64,000 nucleotides of DNA, from the NCBI GenBank assembly GCA_964634935.1, contig CAZWJT010000003.1, positions 52,323 to 116,322 of the forward strand, written 5' to 3'. The stretch is from an uncultured Planctomycetia bacterium (GTDB taxonomy: Bacteria; Omnitrophota; Gorgyraeia; Duberdicusellales; Duberdicusellaceae). The notes beneath the pieces were generated by a model, which searched no databases, was not told the DNA's origin, and saw only the letters and a program-made list of their open reading frames with translations. A program made the position numbers and the translations under genes. Positions 1-22,382 of the stretch are shown here, piece by piece. Numbering within the stretch: position 1 is the first letter of the stretch; each line of letters opens with the position of its first letter.

Positions 1-1
1 C

Positions 2-784
2 ATGAATTGTACCGTCTCCACCGGATGTACCGCCGGAACGGATTCACTAGGGTTTTCCTATGAGTTGATCCGCGACGGTAAACAGGATATTATTATTGCC
101 GGAGCTACCGAGGCGCCGGTATGCCCAATCACATTTGGGGCTTTTGATGTTGTTAACGTTTTGGCCAAGAATAACGATGATCCCCATAAGGCAAGTCGGC
201 CATTTGACAATAAGCGCAATGGGTTTGTTATCTCTGAAGCCGCTGGTATTTTGATACTCGAAGAACTTGAACATGCGAAGAAAAGAAAAGCGAAAATTTA
301 TGGAGAGATTGTTGGCTACGGAACAAGTTGTAACGCATACCACATGACCGATCTTCCCGAAGATGGAGAAGCGATGGAACGGTGCATCAATGATGCCATC
401 GTGGATGCCAAGATTGAGAAAGAAGAGATTGATTATATTAATGCCCATGGTTCCTCTACCCGCCAGAACGATGTTTTTGAAACAAACGCGTATAAGGCGG
501 TTTTTGGAAAGCATGCTTATGCCGTTCCTATCAGTTCCGTGAAATCTATGATTGGACATCCTTTGGCCGCCGCGAACGCCGTGGAGAGCGTACTCTGTGC
601 AATGATCTTTCAACGCGGATATCTTCCGCCCACCATTAATCAGGAGGAGTCAGATCCAAAATGTGATTTAGACTATATCCCGAATGTAAAGCGGGAGGGA
701 AGGCCGCGATATATTTTAAAGACAAGCAGTGGTTTTTCAGGCATTCATTCCTCAATCATCTTTAAACGATGGGAGTGCGTATGA
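2..784 (+). CDS. beta-ketoacyl synthase, KS-alpha-like (5' end outside window)
   Basis: C-terminal two thirds of a KAS I/II fold: GCTAGTDSLG, catalytic His motifs INAHGSST and KSMIGHPLAAANAVE; ORF open at window start; stop overlaps next start (ATGA at 781-784). Confidence 0.85.
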   Translation: MNCTVSTGCTAGTDSLGFSYELIRDGKQDIIIAGATEAPVCPITFGAFDVVNVLAKNNDDPHKASRPFDNKRNGFVISEAAGILILEELEHAKKRKAKIYGEIVGYGTSCNAYHMTDLPEDGEAMERCINDAIVDAKIEKEEIDYINAHGSSTRQNDVFETNAYKAVFGKHAYAVPISSVKSMIGHPLAAANAVESVLCAMIFQRGYLPPTINQEESDPKCDLDYIPNVKREGRPRYILKTSSGFSGIHSSIIFKRWECV

Positions 785-2016
785 ACGAACGAGTTGCCAT
801 AACCGGGATGGGGGTAGTTTCGCCCGCTGGTTTAAAAAAAGAAACTGTCTGGGCAAATTTAAAGCGGGGCAGTTCTTTTGTCGATGAGATTACGAGATTT
901 GATGCAACACTTTATCCTTCCCGGATAGCAGGGCAAGTGCATGAGTTGGACTGTTATTCACATCTGCCCAGCCGGCTGGTGAAAAAGATAGATGTATTTT
1001 CGCATCTGGCTTTAGTGGCGAGCGAACAAGCGTTGCAGGATGCCCGCTTAGACCTTGAGGGAATCGATAAGCGCAGAGTGGGAGCTTTTATGGGAAACGC
1101 TTTGGGCGGCTGGCTTTTTGCTGAGACAGAATTGCGCGATCTTTACATTGAGGGCCGTGAGGGTGTGTCTCCATATATGGCATCCGCGTGGTTTGCCGCT
1201 GCCCCACAAGGGCAAATTACGATTTACTATGGGTTTAAGGGATACAGTAAGACAATAGTGGCGGACCGGGCGTCTTCCGCTTTTGCGATCTGGTATGGAG
1301 CCAGGGTTATCCAGGAAAATAAGAATGATTATGTCCTTGCCGGTGGCATGGAGGCGCCAATTACTCCTTATGCTCTGCTCTGTGCAAACACATGCGGTAA
1401 TCTTTCCAAGAACAACCTTACTCCCAAAAAGGCTTATAAACCCTATGATCTGTACCGAGACGGCTTTGTGTTGGCAGAAGGGGCCGGGATTGTTATGTTA
1501 GAGAAAGAAAGTCATGCTAGTGCCCGCAAGGCGCGGAGTTACGGATATATTTCCGGGGTTGGTTTTTCTTCCGACGGACACCACTATATGCGTCCAAGTC
1601 TTTCTTCCGATGCCCTGGAATATGCGATTGAGGAATGTTTGCGAGATTCCGGATGGAACAAAAAGGACATAGATTATATCTGTTTGGATGGAGAGGCAAC
1701 TCCTTTGGGTGATCTGGTGGAGACCAAGGCATTAAAGGCTGTTTTTGGGAAAGAGTTGAGTCACATTGCGTTAAGCGCCCCAAAGAGCATGTATGGGAAT
1801 CTTTTGGGAGCTCAGGCAGCGTTGGATTTAATCACCACGGTTCTTTCCATGAACAACAGTCTTGTGTTGCCCACGGTGAATTACGAAATGCCAGATCCGG
1901 ATTGTGATTTAGATTATACTCCGCTTAAGGCCCGCGAGAAGAAAATTCAGAAATCGTTGATTCTTACGCGCGGTCGTGGCGGAATAAATGTTGTTCTCGC
2001 TCTTGAGCGCGATTAG
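781..2016 (+). CDS. ketosynthase paralog lacking active-site Cys (chain-length-factor / KS-beta-like)
   Basis: Full-length KS fold (ITGMGVVSPAG N-terminus) but the position aligned to TACSS reads DRASS, no Cys; translationally coupled to the upstream KS; start moved to ATG 781 (GGGAG RBS) rather than 769. Confidence 0.72.
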   Translation: MNERVAITGMGVVSPAGLKKETVWANLKRGSSFVDEITRFDATLYPSRIAGQVHELDCYSHLPSRLVKKIDVFSHLALVASEQALQDARLDLEGIDKRRVGAFMGNALGGWLFAETELRDLYIEGREGVSPYMASAWFAAAPQGQITIYYGFKGYSKTIVADRASSAFAIWYGARVIQENKNDYVLAGGMEAPITPYALLCANTCGNLSKNNLTPKKAYKPYDLYRDGFVLAEGAGIVMLEKESHASARKARSYGYISGVGFSSDGHHYMRPSLSSDALEYAIEECLRDSGWNKKDIDYICLDGEATPLGDLVETKALKAVFGKELSHIALSAPKSMYGNLLGAQAALDLITTVLSMNNSLVLPTVNYEMPDPDCDLDYTPLKAREKKIQKSLILTRGRGGINVVLALERD

Positions 2017-2038
2017 AAGTTTGAAAAAGGAGGAAGGT

Positions 2039-2272
2039 ATGGATTTACGCGATGAAGTACTGCAGAAAATTTGCGAGACTCTGGATGTTGATGAAAAAGA
2101 GCTTACCGTGGACAAAAAACTTTACGATTCTATCGGTGTTGATTCAACGGAAATGGTCGAACTCACCGTTGCTTTAAGTAAGCATTTCGGAGTACAGATT
2201 GCGGCCCATGAAATGACTAAGTTTTCAACCCCCCTTGATATTATTGCGCTGATTGGGAAAAAGAGAGCTTAA
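2039..2272 (+). CDS. acyl carrier protein
   Basis: 78 aa, DSIGVDSTEMVEL phosphopantetheine-attachment Ser motif; AAGGAGGAAGG RBS 5 nt upstream of ATG 2039 (ORF-track start 1988 lacks RBS). Confidence 0.8.
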   Translation: MDLRDEVLQKICETLDVDEKELTVDKKLYDSIGVDSTEMVELTVALSKHFGVQIAAHEMTKFSTPLDIIALIGKKRA

Positions 2273-2275
2273 TCG

Positions 2276-3091
2276 ATGACTTTGATTGACTTAAGTCTTC
2301 CGATCGACGAAAAAGCCTTTGAGGTGCACAAAGTTGAGGTTGAGCGTATTTCGCATGGCGATGGAGTTGAGAAATTCAATCGAGTTATCATGGGGAAAAC
2401 TTTTCAAGGGAAACTGGCTTATTGGTTTGGCAAACGCATTATTCAGAAAAAAGATTTACCTGACGGCGAGTTTCTTTCGTTAGAAATCGTGCATGCCCCT
2501 GTGCACGTTGGCACGCATTTAGACTATACATTTCATTACGGTTCCTCTTCAGAAGAGCGGCCGTCAAAAACAGCTGAAGAGATTCCGCTGGAATGGTGCT
2601 ATCAGAGCGGCGTAAAACTCGATTTTACCCACAAAAAGCCGCAAGAGGTCATTACTGCAGGAGATGTGAAGGCAGCGCTTGAAAAGATCCGGTATACACT
2701 CCGGGATTTTGATATCGTTCTTTTTCATACCGGCGCCAGCGCTCTCTATGGCAGCCCAAGGTATTTTTCTGATTACCCAGGGGTTGATATAACTGCTATT
2801 GATTATCTGCTTGACCGGGGTGTTAAAATTTTTGGCGTTGATACGATGGGTATTGACCGGCCTTACAAATTTATGCTGGGAGAGTTTTTGAAGACGAAGG
2901 ATCCAAAACGATTTTATCCCGCTCATTTCTATGGTCGGAAGCGGGCATTCATCCATATTGAGCGCTTGGCATGTTTGGAAAAACTTCCCAGCTTTGGTTT
3001 CAAGATCATTTGTTTTCCGATCAAGATCAAATGTACGGGAGCTGCCTGGGCTCGCGTGGTGGCGCTCTGTGACTCTTCGGCGTGTCTGTAA
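2276..3091 (+). CDS. cyclase-family protein (kynurenine-formamidase-like 'putative cyclase')
   Basis: HAPVHVGTHLDYTFH = HxGTHxD metal-binding motif of the cyclase family; located directly after KS/CLF/ACP. Confidence 0.7.
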   Translation: MTLIDLSLPIDEKAFEVHKVEVERISHGDGVEKFNRVIMGKTFQGKLAYWFGKRIIQKKDLPDGEFLSLEIVHAPVHVGTHLDYTFHYGSSSEERPSKTAEEIPLEWCYQSGVKLDFTHKKPQEVITAGDVKAALEKIRYTLRDFDIVLFHTGASALYGSPRYFSDYPGVDITAIDYLLDRGVKIFGVDTMGIDRPYKFMLGEFLKTKDPKRFYPAHFYGRKRAFIHIERLACLEKLPSFGFKIICFPIKIKCTGAAWARVVALCDSSACL

Positions 3092-3118
3092 AAGAATTGA
3101 AACAAGGAGGAAAAAGTT

Positions 3119-3559
3119 ATGGCTCATACCGTTAATAGAATCGTGATCGATGCGCCCTATGAAAAAGTATTTGCGATGAGCAACGATATTGCTCGCTGGA
3201 AGGATTTTTTTGATGAATATACTGCGTCCGAAGTGCTTTCTCATGAGGGGAACAAGATTCTTTTTAAGCTTACTCATACCAATGGTACCAGTTGGCAATC
3301 CTACCGCCTGCTTTTTCCCGAAGAAAGATTTACCTATGCCGAACGGCTTACTCCCTTGTTCCCTTTTGCGTATATGAAAATTATCTGGCTGTATCGCCAA
3401 ACTTCCTCGGGAGTTGAGATGACCTGGATCCAAGATTTTACAATGGACAAGCAGGCTAAGTTTACGGATACGCAAGTAGAGGAAATGATGAACAAACATT
3501 CCGGAGAAAATCTGAAACGTTTCAAAGAAATTATCGAGAAAGAGGCGAAAGCGCCATAA
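3119..3559 (+). CDS. SRPBCC-superfamily polyketide cyclase/dehydrase-like protein
   Basis: 146 aa, N-terminus IVIDAPYEKVFAMSNDIARWKDFF typical of Polyketide_cyc2/START fold; strong RBS AAGGAGGAAAAAG upstream. Confidence 0.6.
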   Translation: MAHTVNRIVIDAPYEKVFAMSNDIARWKDFFDEYTASEVLSHEGNKILFKLTHTNGTSWQSYRLLFPEERFTYAERLTPLFPFAYMKIIWLYRQTSSGVEMTWIQDFTMDKQAKFTDTQVEEMMNKHSGENLKRFKEIIEKEAKAP

Positions 3560-4686
3560 TGAAAAAAAGCACTTTTCTTCTTCTCTGTATTGAAGGAGCG
3601 GTGTTGTCTTTTAATGTAGCAGCCTGCGTCGCGCTTATCCCCCAGATTGCGTCAACGTTCCAAGTCGAGCAATTCATCGCGGGCAGACTGACCTGGATTT
3701 ATATGCTTCCTTACGGTGTTGCCGCCTTGGTTTATGGTCCGCTGATTCGGATTGTTGACGCAAAAAAAGTAGAGTGTATTTGTATTCTGTTTTTTGCGTG
3801 CAGTAATTTTTTTGCAGCAACCTCCCAGACAATCGAAGCCCTTTTTATCTCTCGGTTTTTCATGGGCTTGTCCGGTGCGTCGGTTATCCCTCTCGGACTT
3901 ATCCTTATTGCTCAGGAAGTAAAGTCGAGAGAGCGAGGGAAGTATGTCGGCTTTTTTTTCAGCGCGACATTTATCGCTTCATTAATTGGTCTTGTGTTAA
4001 GCGGTTTTGTTCCATGGAGAAATCTTTTCCTTATCCCCGCAGTTTCTGGATTTCTACTCTTTTTTGGCATGGTTTCCTGGTTACCAAATTTTGGCGTACT
4101 ACCGGGACAAAAGGTATTCCGCTATTGGCAGAGCTTTCAGCACAAAGGAGTTCGTCTGGTGTTTTTCTATATTTTTTTTATCAGCATGTTTTACCATGGA
4201 GTTCAGCAATGGCTCGGAGTATATTTTTCGCAGGGATACCTTTTCAATCAAATGACAATCAGCTTACTTGTGACCTTAACGAGTTTTAGCGGTATATTTG
4301 GTGAGGCCATTGGAGGGTATCTCTCCGATCTTATCGGCCGGATACCGACGATTAATCTTGGTATTCTCTGCATGATCGCTGGACTTGTTCTTTTACTGGT
4401 ACGCTTGCCGCTTTTTCTGCTTATACTTCCGATGCTCTTGTGGGGTTTTGGCTGGACGTTGAATCACGCCGGCGTTTCTACTGTGCTTACGGATCTACCC
4501 GGAAATCTTGTCCATGAGGCGGCAAGCCTTAACAGCGGTATTCGATTTTTGTCTGGAGGTATTGGTACGGTTATTGGCGGAATTATTTTACAGAAGAGTT
4601 TTTCACTGGGTTTTCTTCTGTTTGGCGTATGCTTGTTGTTCTTATATATGGCGCACGACCATTTTTTACGCATTCAAAAGGCATAA
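3559..4686 (+). CDS. MFS-type membrane transporter
   Basis: 375 aa, about 10-12 hydrophobic helices, Gly-rich inter-helix loops; ATGA overlap with previous gene. Confidence 0.5.
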   Translation: MKKSTFLLLCIEGAVLSFNVAACVALIPQIASTFQVEQFIAGRLTWIYMLPYGVAALVYGPLIRIVDAKKVECICILFFACSNFFAATSQTIEALFISRFFMGLSGASVIPLGLILIAQEVKSRERGKYVGFFFSATFIASLIGLVLSGFVPWRNLFLIPAVSGFLLFFGMVSWLPNFGVLPGQKVFRYWQSFQHKGVRLVFFYIFFISMFYHGVQQWLGVYFSQGYLFNQMTISLLVTLTSFSGIFGEAIGGYLSDLIGRIPTINLGILCMIAGLVLLLVRLPLFLLILPMLLWGFGWTLNHAGVSTVLTDLPGNLVHEAASLNSGIRFLSGGIGTVIGGIILQKSFSLGFLLFGVCLLFLYMAHDHFLRIQKA

Positions 4687-4704
4687 GCATAATAAGGAGG
4701 GGCT

Positions 4705-5478
4705 ATGGATGAATTACGAGGGAAAGTAGCGATTGTTACCGGAGCAAGCCGCGGCATCGGTAAAGCGCTCGCGTCGACTGCCGCGAGTCTTGGTATTACC
4801 CTAAGTATTGCCGCGCGGCAGGAAAGTCCTCTTCGGGATACCGCAGAAGAAATTTCCAAAAAACATAAGGTGAAAGTGCTTCCTGTTGTCTGCGATGTGA
4901 CCAAGCTTGAGGACTTGGAAAACCTGGTTGCTAAAACCAAAGCAGAGTTCGGCAGGGTTGACATTTTAATCAATAATGCCGGCGTATCAAGCCAATACCC
5001 GTTTCCTCAGCAGCCCCTTGCTGATTTTGAGAAGCTTGCCCACACGAACTATTTAGGATATGTGCGCCTGATCCGTTTAGTTATTGAAGAGATGATTGAG
5101 AGAAAATCTGGCGCGATTATTAATATGGTTTCTGGTTCAACGCTTTGTGATCCTGTTCCCAGGAATTTTATTGTGTATAGCTCTCTCAAAGTGGGTTTAC
5201 GCGCTTTCAGCAAAGGGTTATTCTGGGAATTGCGCGACTGCGGTATCAAAGTAACTTCCATTCTACCTGGGGTTACCGATACGGATCTTACGGGAAAATT
5301 GCAAGAAATAACGGCTGATACAAGCCGTTTGATGACTACAGAAGCGATTGAGAATGCGCTTCGTTTTGCATTGACTGTTCCGGCAAATGTTTGTCCTCTC
5401 GAGATTGCGGTTATTAATCAGCAGACACCTTGGACAAAGCCGGTTATTCCTTATACACAGGCGCATCCAAAACAATAA
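4705..5478 (+). CDS. SDR-family oxidoreductase (ketoreductase-like)
   Basis: TGASRGIGKA Rossmann motif, NNAG, YSSLK catalytic YxxxK. Confidence 0.85.
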   Translation: MDELRGKVAIVTGASRGIGKALASTAASLGITLSIAARQESPLRDTAEEISKKHKVKVLPVVCDVTKLEDLENLVAKTKAEFGRVDILINNAGVSSQYPFPQQPLADFEKLAHTNYLGYVRLIRLVIEEMIERKSGAIINMVSGSTLCDPVPRNFIVYSSLKVGLRAFSKGLFWELRDCGIKVTSILPGVTDTDLTGKLQEITADTSRLMTTEAIENALRFALTVPANVCPLEIAVINQQTPWTKPVIPYTQAHPKQ

Positions 5479-5505
5479 CCAGTTATTCCGAAAATGGAGG
5501 AAGAA

Positions 5506-6966
5506 ATGAAAATTCTATTTGTCATGCCAAAAGTCGGTGCCTGGGCTACTCATGGACAACATCGGGCTCCAAATCAGCTCTACGCACAGTGGGCAGCCTA
5601 TGTGCGAGAAAAAGGATACGATAATCTGGAAGTGCTTGATTGTCGAGCTTTAAATATTTCTCCAGAAGAAATGGTTGAGAAGGTAAAAGCAGCAAAGCCA
5701 ACGATTGTAGTTCTCGGTGACATGCTCCATTCGTACGGCGGCTACGCGATTGTTTGGTATTTTAACGATACTGCGCGGCGAATCAAACAAGCGCTCCCCC
5801 AGGTAACCATTATTATGGGCGGATTATGGTATTCAGCAACACCGCAACAGACTATGGAGGAGAATCCGGCGGTTGACTTTGTGGTTATGGGCGAAGAGGA
5901 ATCATTCTATGATCTGCTTGCGGCTTTGGACAAAAAGAAGAACCTGAAAGATGTGGCAGGGGTGAGCTCCCGGATAGAAGGAAAAGTTTTTCTGGGCCCT
6001 CATAAACCGCTGCTTATGGATTTGAATAGTTTACCGCTTCCAGCTTATGATTTATTCCCGATGGATACTTACGTGGGACACACTCACTGGAAGCCGTTTG
6101 TAGAAATGGTGACTTCCCGGGGTTGCCCTTCTGCGTGTACATTTTGCTACGAATGGGATCAATACGACCCGCGTCATCCGGAAGACTTTCTTAAGTGGCG
6201 GGCTAAATCTCCAGAGCGCGTGATCGAAGAGCTCGAATTACTCCACAAAAAATTCGGCACAAAAGTGGTTGTTATTCAAGATGACAACTTTAACGTAGAT
6301 GCGAAAAGAGTCGAGCGCTTCTGTTTGTTGAAGAAAGAAAAAAATAATCCGATTAAATGGGTTTCGCTCGGTCGGGCGGTTGATTGGATTAACTGTGAAC
6401 AGATTTTGCCACTGATGAAAGAAACAGGCTTATTCACTGGTGTGTTTGGTATTGAAGTTACCACCGAGGAAGAGTTAAAGAAGATTGCAAAAGGGATTAC
6501 CATCGCCCAAATCAAGAAAACCGTAGAAATTTTACGAAAGAATAATGTTGCGGTTGTCGCTGATATCATGATGGGGTTTGACTACGACAATGAACAAATC
6601 ATTAAGCAACGTTTTGAATTTACCGATGAAGTCGATCCAGACATCCTTTGGATTGGGTATGTTACGCCAGCCCCGAATTCTCCAATGTGGAGGATTGGCC
6701 TGAAGAAGGGGTGGATTGATCCGAAGAAGATCGATTTTCTGAAATGGGATTTTTTACATCCAGTAACCCCGACCGACTACCTCTCAACCGAAGATTTGGG
6801 CAGGCTTGGGGCGTGGTGTATGCGGGAATTTTTCTCAAAGCCGGGGAGAATCCAAAGGATTATGACCAGCAATTTTGATCCGCTGGCAAAACTTTGTTTC
6901 CAGGATGTTATGCAGGGAGTGAGCGCCTGGGAAGAAGGAGCAGTCAAAGGAAAAAAACATATCTAG
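5506..6966 (+). CDS. B12-binding-domain radical SAM enzyme
   Basis: N-terminal cobalamin-binding-like domain followed by CPSACTFC (CxxxCxxC) radical SAM cluster motif; GGAGGA RBS favours ATG 5506 over 5494. Confidence 0.8.
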   Translation: MKILFVMPKVGAWATHGQHRAPNQLYAQWAAYVREKGYDNLEVLDCRALNISPEEMVEKVKAAKPTIVVLGDMLHSYGGYAIVWYFNDTARRIKQALPQVTIIMGGLWYSATPQQTMEENPAVDFVVMGEEESFYDLLAALDKKKNLKDVAGVSSRIEGKVFLGPHKPLLMDLNSLPLPAYDLFPMDTYVGHTHWKPFVEMVTSRGCPSACTFCYEWDQYDPRHPEDFLKWRAKSPERVIEELELLHKKFGTKVVVIQDDNFNVDAKRVERFCLLKKEKNNPIKWVSLGRAVDWINCEQILPLMKETGLFTGVFGIEVTTEEELKKIAKGITIAQIKKTVEILRKNNVAVVADIMMGFDYDNEQIIKQRFEFTDEVDPDILWIGYVTPAPNSPMWRIGLKKGWIDPKKIDFLKWDFLHPVTPTDYLSTEDLGRLGAWCMREFFSKPGRIQRIMTSNFDPLAKLCFQDVMQGVSAWEEGAVKGKKHI

Positions 6967-7003
6967 TCAGACAAGAACATATTGATTCAGAGGAACTTTA
7001 TCT

Positions 7004-7918
7004 ATGATTTGTGATTTTCACATACATTTTATTCCTCAGGTTATCGCTGAGCACACATCTTTCTTCCGGGGTGTTTGGTCGGATAAAGCCAGGCTCCTTG
7101 ATTTTTTACGGACGAATAACATCGGGAAAGCTCATCTTGTGTATCCGGCGACGGATGCCCATAGAACACTTGGGGCTGTTGAACTTTGTAAAATTTATAA
7201 CGAAGAGGTGCTGCGCTTTGCCTGCGAAACCGGGGGAGTCGTTCTTCCTTCCGGTATTGTGGATGTTTCACAGGGCGAAGATAAAATTATTTCTGCCATT
7301 GACGAACTCAAGAAGCAAGGTTTTCGAAGCATCTCGCTCGCATCGAGCTATGAAGGGAAATACATCACGGAAAAATTAAAGCTTATTTGTCGCAGGATAG
7401 CCGAACACAACCTTACGCTTTTTGTACATCCCCAGGTTGCCAATCCTGTCGGATTTGATCGGGTACAAGATCCATTGCTCATGCCGGTTCTGGAATATAG
7501 TTTCGATGTTTCCTTGTGTTTTGGCTTATGTATGGTTTCAGGCATTTTTTCCGAAGAACAGAATCCGAAAATAGTTTTTTCTTCGTTAGGCGGAGTCATT
7601 CCATTCTTGCGTGATCGTTTCGACAGCGTCTATATGATGCTCCGCGGCCGGAATATGGTTGAGGATCTAGGAGCGCTTCCTTCGCAGCTCTTAAAGAAAG
7701 CGTATATCGATATTGCGGGCGTGCAGTCTCGCGATATCCTGGCATGTGCGCTCAATCTTTTTTCCGAGGACCACATTCTGTTTGCTTCGGATTATCCAGC
7801 TCAACAAAATATCATGGGCCAGCTGGAGTCTTTCTCTGGACTTTCTCAGGTCGCGCGCGAGAAAATATTAAGCAGAAATTTCTTAAAGTTATTATGCGAT
7901 GATGAAGCTGTACTCTAA
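7004..7918 (+). CDS. amidohydrolase-2 family TIM-barrel metal-dependent hydrolase/decarboxylase
   Basis: N-terminal CDFHIHFIP metal-ligand motif typical of amidohydrolase_2 (ACMSD-like) proteins; about 300 aa. Confidence 0.5.
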   Translation: MICDFHIHFIPQVIAEHTSFFRGVWSDKARLLDFLRTNNIGKAHLVYPATDAHRTLGAVELCKIYNEEVLRFACETGGVVLPSGIVDVSQGEDKIISAIDELKKQGFRSISLASSYEGKYITEKLKLICRRIAEHNLTLFVHPQVANPVGFDRVQDPLLMPVLEYSFDVSLCFGLCMVSGIFSEEQNPKIVFSSLGGVIPFLRDRFDSVYMMLRGRNMVEDLGALPSQLLKKAYIDIAGVQSRDILACALNLFSEDHILFASDYPAQQNIMGQLESFSGLSQVAREKILSRNFLKLLCDDEAVL

Positions 7919-8723
7919 CGGATCTTTTTCCTCCGAAGGCAACCCTAAAGAGCTGCTGGAACCAGGTTTTTTGTTTGGTTGGGGAGTTTTTGAAACCATC
8001 CGCGTTTATCAGCGAAAGCCAGCTTTTCTTTCCGAGCATGTTCAGCGTTTGGAAAAAAGTTGTCGTAAGTTATTCTTGGAGTTTCCTGATTGTTGTATTC
8101 CCTCGATTTTGGAAAAGCTGCTTGATGAAAATCAGCTCGACGACGCGTATTGCCGGGTTACTGTCTATAAAAGACGGGAAGGGGCGGGTATCCTTATTCA
8201 TGTTGCCCCGTTCGCCTATTATCAATCCGGTGAATCTGACCAGGGAGTAAGCGCAGTTATCGCGCCTTTTCGCAGATACTCGGCAAATCCATTCTTAGGG
8301 CTTAAATTGATCAGCTATTGCGAGAACCGGATTGCTTGGAGAATCGCCCAGGATAAAAAGGCTGAAGAGGCACTGATGCTCAACGAGAATGATTTTCTGA
8401 CAGGAGGATCCCGGAGCAGCATATTCTTTGTCAAAGATGGGGTATTATGTACGCCATCTCTTGCCTGCGGGGTATTCCCCGGAATTACCCGGGAGCGCGT
8501 ATTGGCGATCAGTAAAAGAATCGGGCTCTTTTGTAAAGAAGGAGAATTTAAGCCCGAAGATTTAACGAAGGCCCAGGAAGTATTTCTTACGAGTTCTTTG
8601 ATGGAAATTATGCCTCTGGTGTATATCCAAGGCTGCGCTTTTACAGCAAAAAACCCAGGTATTTGGACAAAAAAACTACACTCTTTATATTTGGAAGAAA
8701 TAAACAATGCCCACGCAGTTTAG
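7899..8723 (+). CDS. class IV aminotransferase-fold protein, aminodeoxychorismate-lyase-like
   Basis: 274 aa, GxGVFETIRV N-terminal motif and overall length typical of PabC/ADC lyase rather than BCAT. Confidence 0.6.
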   Translation: MMKLYSNGSFSSEGNPKELLEPGFLFGWGVFETIRVYQRKPAFLSEHVQRLEKSCRKLFLEFPDCCIPSILEKLLDENQLDDAYCRVTVYKRREGAGILIHVAPFAYYQSGESDQGVSAVIAPFRRYSANPFLGLKLISYCENRIAWRIAQDKKAEEALMLNENDFLTGGSRSSIFFVKDGVLCTPSLACGVFPGITRERVLAISKRIGLFCKEGEFKPEDLTKAQEVFLTSSLMEIMPLVYIQGCAFTAKNPGIWTKKLHSLYLEEINNAHAV

Positions 8724-9615
8724 AAGCCCGCTTTTATTTCCGGTTTCAATGAGTCAGGGGATCATCAAGGTGCTTGATGAAACCAAGCTGCCTTTTATCG
8801 AAGAGTACACATGTGTTAAAACCCTTTCTGAGGCTCTGACAGTGCTTGGTTCGATGAAAACTCGTTCCTTGGGACAAGTTCTTCTTTTTTTCTATGCGTG
8901 CGTTGTGCTTGCTGACGCTGATGCGCGGAAGATCGCGCAAGAATTTCATGCAACGCGTCCGACTTTTGACTTTATGACTCTTGCGGAAATTCTTGAGCAA
9001 ATTGAACAAAAGACAAAAAGCCGCCAGAAAGCAGTAGAGTTATTCCTGCACAAGTTCGATCAAGCACGCAAGACGCGGGCGGAGCGGCTTGCCTTTAAAT
9101 TACCAAATCCAGCGAAAGTTTTGACAATTTGCAATATTAACGGAGAGCTGCTCTACCTCGAGCAGGCATTGCGTGCCCAAGGAAAAGAATCCATTTTTTA
9201 TGTTGCAGAAACCAGACCATACTTGCAGGGTAGTCGGCTTTCTTTCTGGGAACTTACGAAAGCTTGCGTTCCTTGTCGTCTTCTCTGCGATAACCAAATT
9301 GCCTGGTGTATGAAGGAGAAAATGGTAAATTGTGTTGTGAGTGGTGCGGACCGAGCCTCCCGGCAAGGCGGAATTGTGAATAAAACCGGGACCTATGCTC
9401 TTGCCGTACTCAGTAAGCATTTTGGCATTCCCTTTTACGCATTCACTCAGTATCCCAAGGATATTGATATCAGTAAGGTGGAAATCGAGGAACGCAACAG
9501 CGAGGAGATTTTTATGTTTTGTGGGGATCTCAAAGTTTCCGATGGGATCTATCCCGCGTTCGATATCATTCCGGGTGAATACGTTACCGAACAGATAATT
9601 CTGGAGGGATTATGA
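8707..9615 (+). CDS. eIF-2B/MtnA-family sugar-phosphate isomerase (methylthioribose-1-P / 5-deoxyribose-1-P isomerase-like)
   Basis: VSGADRASRQGGIVNKTGTYALAVLSKHFGIPFYAF and PAFDIIP C-terminal signature of MtnA/eIF2B family. Confidence 0.75.
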   Translation: MPTQFRSPLLFPVSMSQGIIKVLDETKLPFIEEYTCVKTLSEALTVLGSMKTRSLGQVLLFFYACVVLADADARKIAQEFHATRPTFDFMTLAEILEQIEQKTKSRQKAVELFLHKFDQARKTRAERLAFKLPNPAKVLTICNINGELLYLEQALRAQGKESIFYVAETRPYLQGSRLSFWELTKACVPCRLLCDNQIAWCMKEKMVNCVVSGADRASRQGGIVNKTGTYALAVLSKHFGIPFYAFTQYPKDIDISKVEIEERNSEEIFMFCGDLKVSDGIYPAFDIIPGEYVTEQIILEGL

Positions 9616-10088
9616 AACTAAGAGATCTTCATAATGGAATTATTATTTGGGGCGTGCCCGGGGAAGAGTTATTCCTTTTTTTGGAAACTTGTTCTGGCCT
9701 CTGCATTCTTCCGGAGATGCGCCCTTCCGGTATTGGATTACGGATTAATAGAGAGATATGCAACATCCGGAATATCCCATTCTGCGTTTGTACCGACAAC
9801 ATGCTTGGTAATCTTTTCTTTCAGAAAAAAATAAAGCAGGTAGTCGTGTTTTCTATGAAGGAGGAGAAAGAAAATATTGTTTGTTTTCCGGGTACATTTA
9901 CCCTTTTGATGCTGGCAAGATTGCATTCCGTTCCAGTGAAATTGCTTCCGGCAGGATTGTTTCAAAAAGATGTCCTTATCGATAAAGATGCGCAGACTAT
10001 TTCCGGCAAGCCTCTGGTAGAACAATTGAAGCAGGAGTTTCTTTTTTCTCAGGAATCTGAGATAATATCCCGAAAGGAGTTTGCATGA
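9612..10088 (+). CDS. degenerate eIF-2B/MtnA-like C-terminal domain protein
   Basis: 158 aa; VVVFSMKEEKENIVCFPGTFTLLMLARLHSVPV aligns by eye to the VVVSGADRA...GTYALAVLSKHFGIPF block of the upstream gene but lacks the Asp; ATGA-coupled. Confidence 0.35.
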   Translation: MKLRDLHNGIIIWGVPGEELFLFLETCSGLCILPEMRPSGIGLRINREICNIRNIPFCVCTDNMLGNLFFQKKIKQVVVFSMKEEKENIVCFPGTFTLLMLARLHSVPVKLLPAGLFQKDVLIDKDAQTISGKPLVEQLKQEFLFSQESEIISRKEFA

Positions 10089-11074
10089 AGTTTTCCGAGC
10101 AAAGGAAAGAGTTTATTTTCTGGGCAAAACTTTTAAATGAAAGAGGTTTTGTCACTGCCCGCAGCGGCAATATTTCGTATCGGGTGGGCTCAAATGAATT
10201 GTTAATAACGTCGCACAATAGTTATTTAGGGAGTTTAGCCAACGAGGATATTCTGCTTACGGATATATCCGGAAATCTTCTGGAGGGTCAAGGTGAACCA
10301 ACTTCAGAAAAAGAATTGCACCTTACCCTCTACAGGGTTTTTCCGGATACCCAGGTTGTGTTGCATGCCCATTCCCCTTTTTCTACGGCGTTTTTCTACT
10401 ACCATAAACTTCTTCCTGTATTTTCATTCGAAGCAGAGTTTTATCTCGGGAAAATTCCGGTTGTCGACCAAATAACTCCCACTGTGACAGAACTTACTCC
10501 GGTGCTACAGGCTTTCGGAAAAAATAATATCATTGTATTACGCCGCCATGGGGTTGTAGCAAAAGGGTCAACGTTTCGGGAGGCATTTTCGCTCATTGAG
10601 CTCTTGGAAGAGCAAGCCCGAGTCGGGTTGATGATTTATGCCAGCCGTTCTGGCGTTTTTCCTGATTCATCTCAACCGGCTCAGCAGAGAGAGAAAAAAA
10701 CCTATGTATTATTATCGCAGGAACATATCCAGAAGCTCACGGAGATCATTAATTCGGACAGCGAAGCGCAAGCGCTGGGGAGAAAGTATAATTTAACCAT
10801 GACGTTTGCGATTAAGAATCAGGATACCGGGCAGAGCGCCGGGTTTACCTATGACCAAGGTAAGATTACCAAGACTAGCAGTGGAGAGGATGCCGAGTTT
10901 ATGATTATTGGTTCGGCTGATATTCTGCGCAAAGTATTTAATAGAGAATTAGATCCATTCGTCGCACTCACGCAGGGTAAGGTTCGGTCAAAAGGCGATT
11001 TTTCTAAGATGAGCAAGTGGTATCCAGTGATGGTGCGGACATTCCAGCTTTGGGAACAAGCGCCAGTCGAATAG
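10085..11074 (+). CDS. class II aldolase/adducin-family protein fused to a C-terminal SCP2 sterol-carrier-like domain
   Basis: N-terminal RSGNISYRV...HAHSPFSTAF (MtnB/FucA-type zinc aldolase fold); C-terminal about 110 aa with GKVRSKGDFSKMSKW typical of SCP2. Confidence 0.7.
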   Translation: MKFSEQRKEFIFWAKLLNERGFVTARSGNISYRVGSNELLITSHNSYLGSLANEDILLTDISGNLLEGQGEPTSEKELHLTLYRVFPDTQVVLHAHSPFSTAFFYYHKLLPVFSFEAEFYLGKIPVVDQITPTVTELTPVLQAFGKNNIIVLRRHGVVAKGSTFREAFSLIELLEEQARVGLMIYASRSGVFPDSSQPAQQREKKTYVLLSQEHIQKLTEIINSDSEAQALGRKYNLTMTFAIKNQDTGQSAGFTYDQGKITKTSSGEDAEFMIIGSADILRKVFNRELDPFVALTQGKVRSKGDFSKMSKWYPVMVRTFQLWEQAPVE

Positions 11075-11092
11075 CGTTCATTCAGGAGGATT

Positions 11093-12529
11093 ATGCGCGA
11101 ATATAAATACTATATGGAAGGAAGATTCTTGGGTTCTTCCGAGAAGAGTCTCGTTTTCGACCCATTCTTAGAAGAACCTTTTGCCGAAATTTCTTACACG
11201 CAGATTTCTCAACTGTCGCAGGCTGTGTTTTGTGCGCGTGAAGCTTATCGGCTGTGGTCAAAAAGGTCTTTTGCCGAACGGGCAAAATTATTGAAGGATA
11301 TTGCTCAGATCATTCTCGAGAATCTCCGTGAGCTTGCAGAACTCGAAACAAAAGAAATCGGAAAACCCTTGAAAGAAAGCCTTTTTGTCGATATTCCCCT
11401 CGCCGCCGAAGTTTTTTCTTATTATGCTTCTTTTTTAGAGCGGCTTGAGGAACGCACTCAGCAAACCGGAAGCACGATCGACATTTTTGAATATAAACCA
11501 TACGGCGTATGCGGGATTTATCTGCCGTATAACGTTCCATTAATGATTTTTGGTTTTACTGCGGCTGCGGCGCTTGCCGCCGGAAATGCAGTCATCATCA
11601 AACCTTCAGAATATGCGTCGTTGTCTCTGCTGCGCCTTACGGAATTACTGGATTTGCTTTCTCTTCCTAAGGGGCTTATTCAAGTGGTGACTGGGAGGGG
11701 CGATGAACTTGGACATGCGTTTGCCGAACAGGATATAGATCTTATTTCTTTTACCGGCTCGCGGGAAACATTGGGAAAGGTTGTCGCGGCGTCAGCAAAA
11801 AATCCTAAAAAGATTATCTGCGAACTCGGCGGGGCTAATTGTACTGTTGTATTTCAAGACGCCGATCTTCTCGAAGCGGAACAGAATATTTTAGGTTCGT
11901 CATTCATGAAACAAGGGCAAATTTGTATTGGGACAAGCATCGCCCTAGTTGAAGAAAATATCTATGATTCATTTGTCCCCCGCCTTGTTGAAAAAACAAA
12001 GAAAATTACCCTGGGCAATCCCTTTGAGCCGGCTGTGGGTTTAGGTCCTCTTGTTTCACAACAGCACCGCAGCAATGTTGAACAAAAGGTTGCGCAACTT
12101 CTCAAAACGCAAGGAAAACTTCTCTGCGGAGGCGTGATCCCGAGACAAAAAGGCTATTTTTATCCAGCTACAATTATTGAATTATCCAGCATGCTCTACG
12201 AAGAGTTTTTCGCTCCAGTTCTACTTGTTTATAAATTCAAAGATTACAACGAAGCGCTCAAAATCGTTTCCCAGAATCCTACAGGGCTTGTTTGTCAAAT
12301 CTGGACAAAAGACCTGGAGAAAGCGCGAACGTTTGCTTCAAGTGCTGAAGCCGGGACTGTCTGGATTAATACCTTTGCCCAAATGTCCGCAAAAACACCT
12401 TTTGGTGGTTTTCGGCAGAGTGGTTTTGGCCGGAATTTGGGGGAGGAAGGATTTTTTGAATATGTGCAAACCAAACATACCGGGATTGGATTTGACAAGA
12501 GTCCAGTTTCTGGCTGGTTCGGGTTATGA
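11093..12529 (+). CDS. NAD(P)-dependent aldehyde dehydrogenase
   Basis: ALDH family: ELGGANCTVV (catalytic Cys region), FTGSRETG, GQICIGTS. Confidence 0.85.
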   Translation: MREYKYYMEGRFLGSSEKSLVFDPFLEEPFAEISYTQISQLSQAVFCAREAYRLWSKRSFAERAKLLKDIAQIILENLRELAELETKEIGKPLKESLFVDIPLAAEVFSYYASFLERLEERTQQTGSTIDIFEYKPYGVCGIYLPYNVPLMIFGFTAAAALAAGNAVIIKPSEYASLSLLRLTELLDLLSLPKGLIQVVTGRGDELGHAFAEQDIDLISFTGSRETLGKVVAASAKNPKKIICELGGANCTVVFQDADLLEAEQNILGSSFMKQGQICIGTSIALVEENIYDSFVPRLVEKTKKITLGNPFEPAVGLGPLVSQQHRSNVEQKVAQLLKTQGKLLCGGVIPRQKGYFYPATIIELSSMLYEEFFAPVLLVYKFKDYNEALKIVSQNPTGLVCQIWTKDLEKARTFASSAEAGTVWINTFAQMSAKTPFGGFRQSGFGRNLGEEGFFEYVQTKHTGIGFDKSPVSGWFGL

Positions 12530-12586
12530 GCGAAAAGAGTTGACAAGATAAGATTATTTCATAAAATCTATACTACTTTCTCATAT

Positions 12587-12662
12587 GGGGACGTCGTTTA
12601 GCCCGGTTCAAGACCCCTGCCTGTCACGCAGGTGATCGTGGGTTCAAATCCCATCGTCCCCG
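12587..12662 (+). tRNA. tRNA-Asp (anticodon GTC)
   Basis: 76-nt cloverleaf: acceptor GGGGACG/CGTCCCC, anticodon stem CCTGC/GCAGG with loop CTGTCAC, T-loop GGTTCAAATCC. Confidence 0.85.
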
Positions 12663-12735
12663 TTTATCCGAGATCGATAGAATCTGATAGACTATGGGTT
12701 CGCCATAAACCGCCTAACAGGACGATAGCTCCTAA

Positions 12736-22213: not shown

Positions 22214-22287
22214 GCGCCCGTAGCTCAATTGGATAGAGCGCCTGGCTACGAACCAGAAGGTTGGGTGTTCAATTCACCCCGGGCGCG
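22214..22287 (+). tRNA. tRNA-Arg (anticodon ACG)
   Basis: Acceptor GCGCCCG/CGGGCGC, D-arm GCTCAATTGGATAGAGC, anticodon loop CTACGAA, T-loop GGGTGTTCAATTCACCC; one C-A mismatch at the base of the anticodon stem. Confidence 0.8.
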
Positions 22288-22382
22288 CTATTAGTCTTTG
22301 CGAGACAATAAGATATGCTCCAAAGGCATTCCGCGCAAAAACAAAATTCCCTCCCTACTTATTCTCGCCTTGTTTGTTGCTC

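Follow-up and report, generated by a model that had tools for sequence, protein, structure and literature searches.

Introduction

Type II polyketide synthases (PKSs) are known almost entirely from actinomycetes, and the few "ancestral" examples from anaerobes have given unusual chemistry and biology. The dendrubin (den), AQ-256 (ant), and pyxidicycline (pcy) clusters of non-actinomycetes combine a ketosynthase (KS), a chain-length factor (CLF), as well as an acyl carrier protein (ACP), with TcmN-type and OxyN-type cyclases and an oxidoreductase (PMC7693217). Clostridium beijerinckii and C. puniceum produce clostrubin (PMC7693217), which lets strict anaerobes survive in air (PMC5321127). A 2023 catalogue of CLFs names 'Candidatus Omnitrophica' among 14 phyla with KS-CLF pairs, without further analysis (PMC10132072). 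Beyond this listing we found no literature linking Omnitrophota to the cluster described here, and a genomics paper on the phylum makes no mention of polyketides, radical S-adenosylmethionine (SAM) enzymes, or acyl carrier proteins.

Here we describe a PKS locus at the beginning of a 64,000-nucleotide stretch of contig CAZWJT010000003.1 (hereafter the window), deposited under the name of an uncultured Planctomycetia bacterium. The region likely forms the 3′ three-quarters of a 19-gene operon of ∼17.2 kb that encodes an old-lineage type II (aromatic) PKS of Candidatus Omnitrophota. An original prediction, made from the letters of positions 1-5478, had proposed a cassette of a KS, a Cys-less KS paralog, an ACP, two cyclases, a ketoreductase, and an exporter. 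All of the genes and motifs that it quoted are found where it placed them, with strong Pfam E-values far beyond chance, and profiles for ketoacyl-synt N/C, PP-binding, PF04199, and Polyketide_cyc2 all match. It had also argued from a GC content of about 45% and the surrounding genes that the host is unlikely to be an actinomycete; we measure a GC content of 0.44-0.47, and the host belongs to Candidatus Omnitrophota.

The ketosynthase pair

The window holds the C-terminal 260 of the 417 residues of KS1 (KSα) and the whole of KS2, its Cys-less, CLF-like partner. The two genes overlap in an ATGA at 781-784, with a Shine-Dalgarno-like GGGAG six bases upstream (771-775). In an alignment of orthologs, the catalytic columns of KS1 read Cys-His-Lys-His in 76 of 76 sequences. 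The same columns in KS2 carry Arg (48 sequences) or Lys (33 sequences) in place of Cys, followed by Asp, Lys, and Asn in 81 of 81 orthologs, and no Cys-His-His triad is retained. The alignment strongly supports KS1 as a catalytically intact ketosynthase and KS2 as its translationally coupled, obligate-looking partner. KS2 would be unable to condense because Cys and both His residues have been lost to Arg/Lys, Asp, and Asn.

Searches against the PDB place KS1 nearest to the actinorhodin KSα (1TQY_A, 347.6 bits) and Photorhabdus AntD (6SMO_B, 347 bits), with the best FabF at 334 bits. In an exhaustive search of 1.8 billion representative proteins, the Omnitrophota KS2 family forms a single 50% cluster, and the next proteins are 38-43% identical, most of them with Arg or Lys at the Cys column. 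Three relatives in this set are named, those of C. beijerinckii/C. puniceum, Ktedonobacter, and Archangium, and these nearest Cys-less proteins too have Arg or Lys there. In a neighbor-joining tree, all 18 Cys-less proteins, including KS2, form one clade (200 of 200 bootstraps), and the KS1-type (KSα) proteins form a separate one (100 of 100). The branching order of the Clostridium, Nitrospirota-type, and Omnitrophota sequences is identical in the two clades, indicating that the pair is old and has been inherited together. These clade assignments, along with the KS1 matches to the actinorhodin KSα and AntD, support a KS/CLF system over the FabF/FabB alternative, as originally proposed. We also considered a recent FabF duplication and rejected it, as KS2 falls among the other Cys-less proteins in the tree, apart from KS1. 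Canonical CLFs carry Gln at the Cys position. Judged from the sequences compared, Arg or Lys at this position is the norm for an old, non-actinobacterial CLF clade, and Gln therefore marks the actinobacterial CLFs rather than this older clade.

We also observe metagenomic proteins of ∼800-870 amino acids (P0242, P0246, P0250, and similar) in which a Cys-containing KS is fused to a Cys-less KS, one of them with D-R-A-S in its second half. These fusions are single-polypeptide KS-CLF pairs.

Extent and borders of the operon

The original prediction had put the 5′ end of the cluster beyond the window, and exact matching of KS2 recovered this end on contig L001, which differs from the window at 2 of 12,016 overlapping nucleotides. 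This contig supplies the full 417-residue KS1 and, 5′ of it, five co-directional genes for an AMP-ligase, a nucleoside phosphorylase, a DUF2621-like protein, an ApbA-like reductase, and a TIGR04076 protein (Table 1). Dehydratase or enoyl reductase genes just upstream would have spoken for a fatty-acid or polyunsaturated-lipid system; neither enzyme is encoded among the 19 operon genes or in the 10 kb upstream. On the other side, seven more genes follow the predicted cassette in the same tight packing, through an aldehyde dehydrogenase gene.

Gaps between the 19 genes are at most 65 nucleotides, overlaps are frequent, and all lie on one strand. The first gene, which begins ∼4.7 kb 5′ of the window, is preceded by a TTGACT-17-TAAAAT site, and a tRNA-Asp(GTC) directly bounds the 3′ end. 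Because of this packing and these borders, we set the unit at ∼17.2 kb with its end at 12529; the original prediction had closed it at 5478, and the unit is about three times larger and phylum-wide rather than sporadic. The region's best promoter-like site (11 of 12 positions) falls between the aldehyde dehydrogenase gene and the tRNA-Asp, and promoter and terminator scans of the region gave overall counts at chance level. Scans of the window with Rfam and tRNA models returned two tRNAs and no other RNA element. Genes 3′ of the operon (DUF192, glycine cleavage) are essentially non-syntenic elsewhere, with DUF192 found in one locus and GcvT in none. None of the operon proteins reaches an NCBIfam equivalog cutoff; the only models whose cutoffs are passed are TIGR04076, ApbA/PanE, and, for KS1, one of a FabF subfamily.

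Table 1. Operon genes and other features. Positions refer to the window unless contig L001 is named; aa, amino acids.
Feature	Position	Strand	Family evidence
AMP-ligase	first upstream gene, outside window (L001)	co-directional	FadD/MenE-like, not acetyl-CoA-synthetase-like
Nucleoside phosphorylase	outside window (L001)	co-directional	PNP_UDP_1 2e-32
DUF2621-like protein, 90 aa	L001 6872-7144, outside window	co-directional	
ApbA/PanE-like reductase	outside window (L001)	co-directional	ApbA/PanE model, passes cutoff
TIGR04076 protein, 194 aa, tandem domains	outside window (L001)	co-directional	TIGR04076, passes cutoff
KS1 (KSα)	2..784 (whole gene L001 8763-10016)	+	ketoacyl-synt + Ketoacyl-synt_C (Pfam, 1e-35)
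KS2, Cys-less partner ketosynthase (CLF-like)	781..2016 (alternative start 769)	+	full KS domains, 2e-43 and 1e-26
Acyl carrier protein	2039..2272 (open reading frame from 1988)	+	PP-binding 4.5e-13
PF04199 'Cyclase' family protein	2276..3091	+	PF04199 1.5e-29
Single-domain TcmN/WhiE-type aromatase/cyclase, SRPBCC fold, 146 aa	3119..3559	+	Polyketide_cyc, Polyketide_cyc2
MFS transporter	3559..4686	+	MFS_1 5e-35
Short-chain dehydrogenase/reductase	4705..5478	+	adh_short 2e-50, KR domain 8e-9
B12-binding radical SAM enzyme, BchE/HpnJ-like	5494..6966	+	B12-binding + Radical_SAM
Amidohydro_2 protein, decarboxylase branch (ACMSD/IDCase/LigW-like)	7004..7918	+	PF04909
Class IV aminotransferase/aminodeoxychorismate-lyase-like protein	7899..8723	+	Aminotran_4 6e-51
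MtnA-like (5-substituted) ribose-1-phosphate isomerase	8707..9615	+	IF-2B family 4e-35
158-aa protein, weak relative of MtnA C-terminal half	9612..10088	+	weak NCBIfam match
Class II (FucA/DrdA/MtnB-family) aldolase with C-terminal SCP2 domain	10085..11074	+	Aldolase_II 1.4e-36, SCP2 4e-6
NAD(P)-dependent aldehyde dehydrogenase, last operon gene	11093..12529	+	Aldedh 2e-132
Best promoter-like site	12540-12567		11/12
tRNA-Asp(GTC)	12586-12663		
tRNA-Arg(ACG)	22214-22288		
Surface-glycan island	20669-59491		

Conservation across Omnitrophota

A scan of one genome per species found relatives in 94 places, of which we fetched 80; all of the named KS2 homologs are from Candidatus Omnitrophota. In a tblastn matrix of the 19 proteins against the fetched loci, the same gene set recurs in three orders across at least 80 Omnitrophota species representatives, among which KS1 and KS2 are 55-86% identical. 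The first order reads A-B-C-D-E-KS1-KS2-ACP-Cyc-ARO-MFS-SDR-rSAM-Amidohydrolase-(AT)-P-(Q)-R-S, and the others read A-B-P-(Q)-R-S-rSAM-C-D-KS1-KS2... and C-D-E-KS1-KS2-rSAM-ACP-...-B-P-R-S, with B standing for the phosphorylase, P for the isomerase, R for the aldolase, and S for the dehydrogenase. One order thus sets the radical SAM gene between KS2 and ACP, and in one the ligase, phosphorylase, isomerase, aldolase, and dehydrogenase genes form a single overlapping string. The cohesion of the set despite these rearrangements gives good support to a single functional unit.

For 33 loci, about 10 kb on either side of KS2 was available (the full-flank subset). In these we find the phosphorylase in 29, the isomerase in 28, the radical SAM enzyme in 31, the Amidohydro_2 protein in 29, the short-chain dehydrogenase/reductase (SDR) in 31, the MFS transporter in 30, and the ApbA-like reductase in 32. 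Since the cluster extends beyond the flank, counts for the outermost genes are minimum values. A single locus of the 33 is without all four of phosphorylase, isomerase, aldolase, and dehydrogenase. Two members are variable: the class IV aminotransferase-like gene (13 of 33) and the 158-residue MtnA-like fragment, which is present in 7 full loci and always sits between isomerase and aldolase. The operon is kept in a chromosome of 1.28 Mb (L010). A locus from a complete genome (L033) has the core genes only, with no tailoring set nearby.

Compared with loci L003-L009 and L010/L022/L023, window 1-12529 is a mosaic. Its KS1, KS2, TIGR04076, SDR, and MFS proteins are closest to one genome group (∼80-85% identity; MFS 58%), and a second group is the nearest for its TcmN-like cyclase, isomerase, aldolase, and dehydrogenase (53-73%, vs 35-61% in the first), a pattern that suggests exchange of sub-blocks within the phylum. 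We also note that contig L032, whose operon copy is 75% identical, was deposited as 'Methanosarcinales archaeon', and that many contigs with the operon (L016, L020, L021, and others) are labeled 'uncultured Planctomycetia/Planctomycetales'. These labels look like binning or labeling artifacts for Omnitrophota contigs, and they bear on reports of archaeal or planctomycete type II PKS matches.

Carrier protein, cyclases, and tailoring enzymes

The ACP was originally taken to start at 1988; its start is probably at 2039 (MDLRDE...), the orthologs being 77-90 residues long. The Asp-Ser of its attachment motif is invariant in 74 of 74 orthologs. The PF04199 protein encoded next keeps HxG(T/S)HxD in all 74 of its orthologs (HxGTHxD in the window copy). 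We take the OxyN component of the ancestral type II PKS clusters in the dendrubin paper to belong to the same PF04199 family; a literature search on this family was uninformative.

For the 146-residue SRPBCC protein, a PDB search gave eight matches at E ≤ 1, of which seven, the only significant ones, are TcmN/WhiE aromatase/cyclases aligned over the full length at E ∼1e-25 to 3e-24 (PDB 2RER, 3TVQ, 3TVR, and 2KF2). Equivalents of TcmN W28, F32, Y35, W63/65, S67, R69, R82, M91, W95, W108, and Q110 are kept, and most of these pocket positions are at least 95% conserved in 71 orthologs. The operon protein differs from TcmN in that the latter is fused to an O-methyltransferase, and from WhiE in that WhiE acts in spore pigment synthesis. 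The match strengthens the case for an aromatic product, which the original prediction had left beside an alicyclic one.

The cyclases also bear on whether the locus could instead be a fatty-acid or lipid system, either a duplicated FabF or a reducing type II PKS of the type that makes aryl polyenes or ladderanes. FabF models give both KS proteins good scores, the radical SAM enzyme weakly matches a ladderane-associated 'lipid biosynthesis B12-binding/radical SAM' model (75 bits vs a cutoff of 360), and 'ladderane' biosynthetic gene cluster calls have been reported in metagenome-assembled genomes of Omnitrophota (PMC9902471). However, two aromatic-polyketide cyclases with intact motifs directly follow the ACP, KS2 has lost the whole triad, the 19 genes include neither dehydratase nor enoyl reductase, and the nearest locus among cultured bacteria is the type II PKS locus of clostrubin-producing clostridia. 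We regard a lipid product as very improbable.

Of the tailoring proteins, the MFS transporter has only weak matches to drug-efflux families and would export the product. The SDR orthologs are 53-85% identical, and the top NCBIfam model, 3-ketoacyl-ACP reductase, scores under its cutoff; a role as ketoreductase is possible. 'Ketoreductase' and 'exporter' are accordingly used here as family-level labels only. The radical SAM enzyme scores 185 bits against BchE and 144 bits against HpnJ, both under cutoff. PDB matches of the Amidohydro_2 protein are uracil-5-carboxylate, ACMS, and 5-carboxyvanillate decarboxylases; the HxH...D metal motif is conserved, and homologs also occur in the Nitrospirota-type and C. 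beijerinckii clusters discussed below. The class IV aminotransferase-like protein scores under the cutoffs of both the aminodeoxychorismate lyase and branched-chain aminotransferase models.

We found no functional literature on TIGR04076, and no solved relative. The 90-residue DUF2621-like protein resembles the C-terminal tail of a U32 protein in a sister cluster (L082 2549-3973; 24% identity over 62 residues, E 4e-5) and has a weak match to the PCP_red domain of protochlorophyllide reductase; it could represent a partner domain that has become detached. In 17 Omnitrophota loci, an additional gene for a protein of ∼145-170 residues lies between those for the DUF2621-like and ApbA-like proteins. 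This gene is absent from the operon of the window, and in sister clusters the same protein is encoded after the U32 gene. Examples are L052 6934-7449, L035 6635-7087, and L082 3970-4404.

A putative nucleoside-cleaving module

The remaining genes, at the two ends of the operon, encode a putative nucleoside-cleaving module. The phosphorylase, whose gene is translationally linked to that of the AMP-ligase, has the methylthioadenosine (MTA) phosphorylase of Sulfolobus solfataricus as its top PDB match (1e-24), with all NCBIfam equivalogs far under cutoff. The isomerase is closest in the PDB to methylthioribose-1-phosphate isomerases and scores 144 against the mtnA equivalog cutoff of 279. Cys142 (TxCN), the ETRPxxQG motif, and Asp215 (in a G(A/S)D motif) are invariant in its 44 orthologs; Cys142 and Asp215 correspond to the catalytic residues of MtnA. 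Fuculose-phosphate aldolases (e.g., 6BTD) are among the PDB matches of the aldolase, and Glu75, His94, His96, and His155, which make up the Zn-binding His triad and the catalytic Glu, are invariant in 38 orthologs. The lengths of the aldolase orthologs (∼330 residues) cover the SCP2 part, and in a word-index search that found 172 homologs of the fusion, every named one is from Omnitrophota. The Omnitrophota and the sister clusters both encode an aldehyde-oxidizing enzyme, which in two Omnitrophota loci is the ferredoxin-dependent one.

In the dihydroxyacetone phosphate (DHAP) shunt, a nucleoside is converted to a sugar-1-phosphate, then to a ketose-1-phosphate, and finally to DHAP and an aldehyde, X-CH2-CHO. 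The fluoroacetate route of Streptomyces cattleya follows the same logic with a dehydrogenase added, taking X-CH2-CHO to X-CH2-COOH. The Omnitrophota module has the families and logical order of the shunt (PMC10986504), a pathway for MTA and 5′-deoxyadenosine (PMC10986504, PMC12632272). In contrast to both routes, it sits in a PKS operon, has an aldolase-SCP2 fusion and an adjoining AMP-ligase, and includes no halogenase.

The likeness raises the prospect that the locus comprises two separate units, an aromatic type II PKS and an ordinary DHAP shunt that disposes of 5′-deoxyadenosine or MTA and has no part in priming, at most removing the by-product of the radical SAM enzyme in the cluster. All three core enzymes belong to canonical DHAP-shunt families with intact active-site residues, the same operon encodes a B12-radical SAM enzyme that would release 5′-deoxyadenosine, and Nitrospirota-type sister clusters work without the module. 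Yet the module is tied to the PKS genes in 32 of the 33 full-flank loci, through three rearrangements that place it on either side of them or split around them; its aldolase bears a lineage-specific lipid-binding SCP2 domain, and the ligase linked to the phosphorylase is a FadD/MenE-like AMP-ligase rather than an acetyl-CoA synthetase. We regard pure salvage as the main rival to a priming role, and as only a little less likely.

Comparison with known systems

The closest locus in a cultured organism is that of C. beijerinckii, where ∼9 kb, with not all genes adjacent, encode a KS (45% identical to the operon protein), a partner KS (40%), a TIGR04076-like protein (37%), a PF04199 cyclase (45%), a TcmN-like protein (40%), and an Amidohydro_2 protein (25%). 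Like the operon, the C. beijerinckii/C. puniceum locus has a Cys-less partner with Arg at the Cys column and belongs to an anaerobic host. The clostridial partner nevertheless keeps the second His, reading R-E-K-H where KS2 reads R-D-K-N. The clostridial locus alone has phosphopantetheinyl transferases, a KSIII, a second ACP, and FrsA-like hydrolases, whereas the nucleoside module, AMP-ligase, ApbA-like reductase, and B12-radical SAM enzyme are missing within 10 kb of it.

The operon shares the overall composition of the den, ant, and pcy clusters, from which we compared AntD alone by sequence (PDB 6SMO_B). It differs in that these clusters have a two-domain (duplicated) TcmN, while the operon encodes a single domain, with PF04199 first and TcmN second. 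Relative to the actinorhodin pair (1TQY), KS1 resembles the KSα, and KS2 is more like the CLF (221 bits) than the KSα (187 bits).

Sister clusters from Nitrospirota and metagenome lineages (L082-L086 and L088) share, in the same order, the genes for the DUF2621-like, ApbA-like, and TIGR04076 proteins, KS, partner KS, ACP, both cyclases, and the Amidohydro_2 protein. In them, TIGR04076 is encoded by two single-domain genes rather than as a tandem protein, and the place of the nucleoside module, ligase, SDR, and MFS transporter is taken by a U32 protein, an aldehyde:ferredoxin oxidoreductase, an FMN reductase, and two amine-oxidase-like flavoproteins. The U32 family includes UbiU/UbiV, oxygen-independent ubiquinone hydroxylases that work with the SCP2 protein UbiT (PMC6747719). 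The 19-gene operon, its clostridial homology, the TIGR04076/ApbA/DUF2621 accessory set, and the nucleoside module appear to be undescribed in the literature searched.

Proposed pathway and product

From the gene content, the KS1/KS2 heterodimer would build a poly-β-keto chain on the ACP from malonyl units, with malonyl transferase and phosphopantetheinyl transferase supplied from elsewhere in the genome. The two cyclases would fold and aromatize this chain to a polycyclic phenol, from which the Amidohydro_2 enzyme would take off a carboxyl group. The BchE-like B12-radical SAM enzyme could then carry out an oxygen-independent C-methylation or oxidation, the SDR would reduce a carbonyl, and the MFS protein would export the product. 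The AMP-ligase/phosphorylase/isomerase/aldolase-SCP2/dehydrogenase sub-operon would convert a 5′-substituted or 5′-deoxy purine nucleoside, either 5′-deoxyadenosine from the cluster's radical SAM enzyme or methylthioadenosine, to DHAP and a two-carbon aldehyde; the aldehyde would be oxidized to an acid, which would be adenylated and prime the synthase. This last use of the module is the most speculative step, and we prefer it only tentatively. A dedicated primer route would fit KS2, because KS2 is without the Gln and His residues to which decarboxylative priming is ascribed.

The analogy with clostrubin of anaerobes makes a redox-active polyphenol or quinone-like pigment the probable product, and the redox enzymes encoded in the sister clusters agree with this. 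In a further alternative, the product is no dispensable secondary metabolite. It would be a polyketide quinone or polyphenol, made without oxygen, that serves the whole phylum as a core redox cofactor or electron carrier. Consistent with this are the conservation of KS1 and KS2 over so many species representatives, the retention of the operon in the 1.28-Mb genome, the U32 (UbiU/UbiV family), FMN reductase, and aldehyde:ferredoxin oxidoreductase genes that the sister clusters add, and the part that SCP2 domains play in making quinones, as in UbiT/UbiJ (PMC6747719); where Omnitrophota obtain their quinone head group has been reported as unresolved (PMC10066038). However, there is no prenyltransferase in or beside the conserved set, the conserved MFS transporter suggests export, and the complete-genome locus L033 holds the core genes alone, so that we consider a core cofactor improbable. 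A broader proposal joins these ideas: an oxygen-independently tailored polyketide quinone or polyphenol serving as core redox carrier or oxygen-protection factor, its starter drawn from the ribose of a SAM-derived nucleoside, with the same role for the Nitrospirota-type clusters. This we offer as a long shot.

Several observations weigh against the aromatic type II PKS and the pathway that we favor. None of the 81 KS2 orthologs has the canonical CLF Gln at the former Cys column, the one feature of a type II aromatic PKS readable from sequence that the operon is without, and in the PDB KS2 lies nearer to FabF (278 bits) than to the actinorhodin CLF. The phylogeny that the original prediction called for stands in part: KS2 does group with the clostridial Cys-less partner, in a tree built without actinobacterial KS/CLF reference sequences. 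No malonyl-CoA:ACP transacylase or phosphopantetheinyl transferase is encoded in the operon. An SDR is an odd fit beside a single-domain TcmN-type cyclase, whose usual setting is a non-reducing system. The C. beijerinckii locus is probably the clostrubin (clr) cluster, an assignment based on species identity with no matched accession. The pathway steps are read from sequence, and both product and chemistry are inferred from it. The case for priming is indirect: the Nitrospirota-type sister clusters have neither nucleoside module nor ligase, so that this PKS type does not depend on the module, neither priming nor salvage accounts for the SCP2 fusion, and the DHAP shunt discussed above is a competing use of the same enzymes.

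Other features of the window and its surroundings

Upstream of the operon and outside the window, L001 1-3336 contains a lycopene-cyclase-domain gene, a polyprenyl synthase gene, and a gene for a Pyr_redox_2 flavoprotein. All three are found there in this genome only and are syntenic in none of the other 80 loci, and an isoprenoid-quinone reading based on the polyprenyl synthase and Pyr_redox_2 genes was dropped for this reason. Across window 1-64000, all examined open reading frames of at least 150 residues lie on the + strand, apart from two on the − strand that overlap + strand frames. The GC skew is positive almost throughout, its cumulative value rising from 0.14 to 2.69, and the co-directional stretch is unusually long. 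Downstream, besides a tRNA-Arg(ACG), we find a very large surface-glycan island with genes for a sugar transferase, a DegT-type aminotransferase, a GNVR chain-length protein, a NeuB-type nonulosonic acid synthase, two cytidylyltransferases, two UDP-GlcNAc 2-epimerases, several epimerase/dehydratases, sugar C-methyltransferases, a glycerophosphotransferase, and an ABC exporter.

Implications

The partner KS, with Arg/Lys-Asp in place of Cys-His, offers testable biochemistry, as does the nucleoside-to-C2-acid module, which may prime the synthase. TIGR04076, DUF2621-like, and ApbA-like proteins represent uncharacterized families that travel with these synthases from Clostridium to Nitrospirota. 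Its 19 genes share one strand and take up 17 kb, which makes synthesis and heterologous expression of the operon practical. The broader proposal, if true, would bring to light a way of priming type II PKSs and a class of anaerobic cofactor biosynthesis that have both been unknown so far. An old PKS core is fixed across an uncultured phylum of mostly tiny, genome-reduced, and probably host-dependent bacteria; such retention is unusual for a secondary-metabolite cluster and suggests that the product matters to the Omnitrophota way of life.

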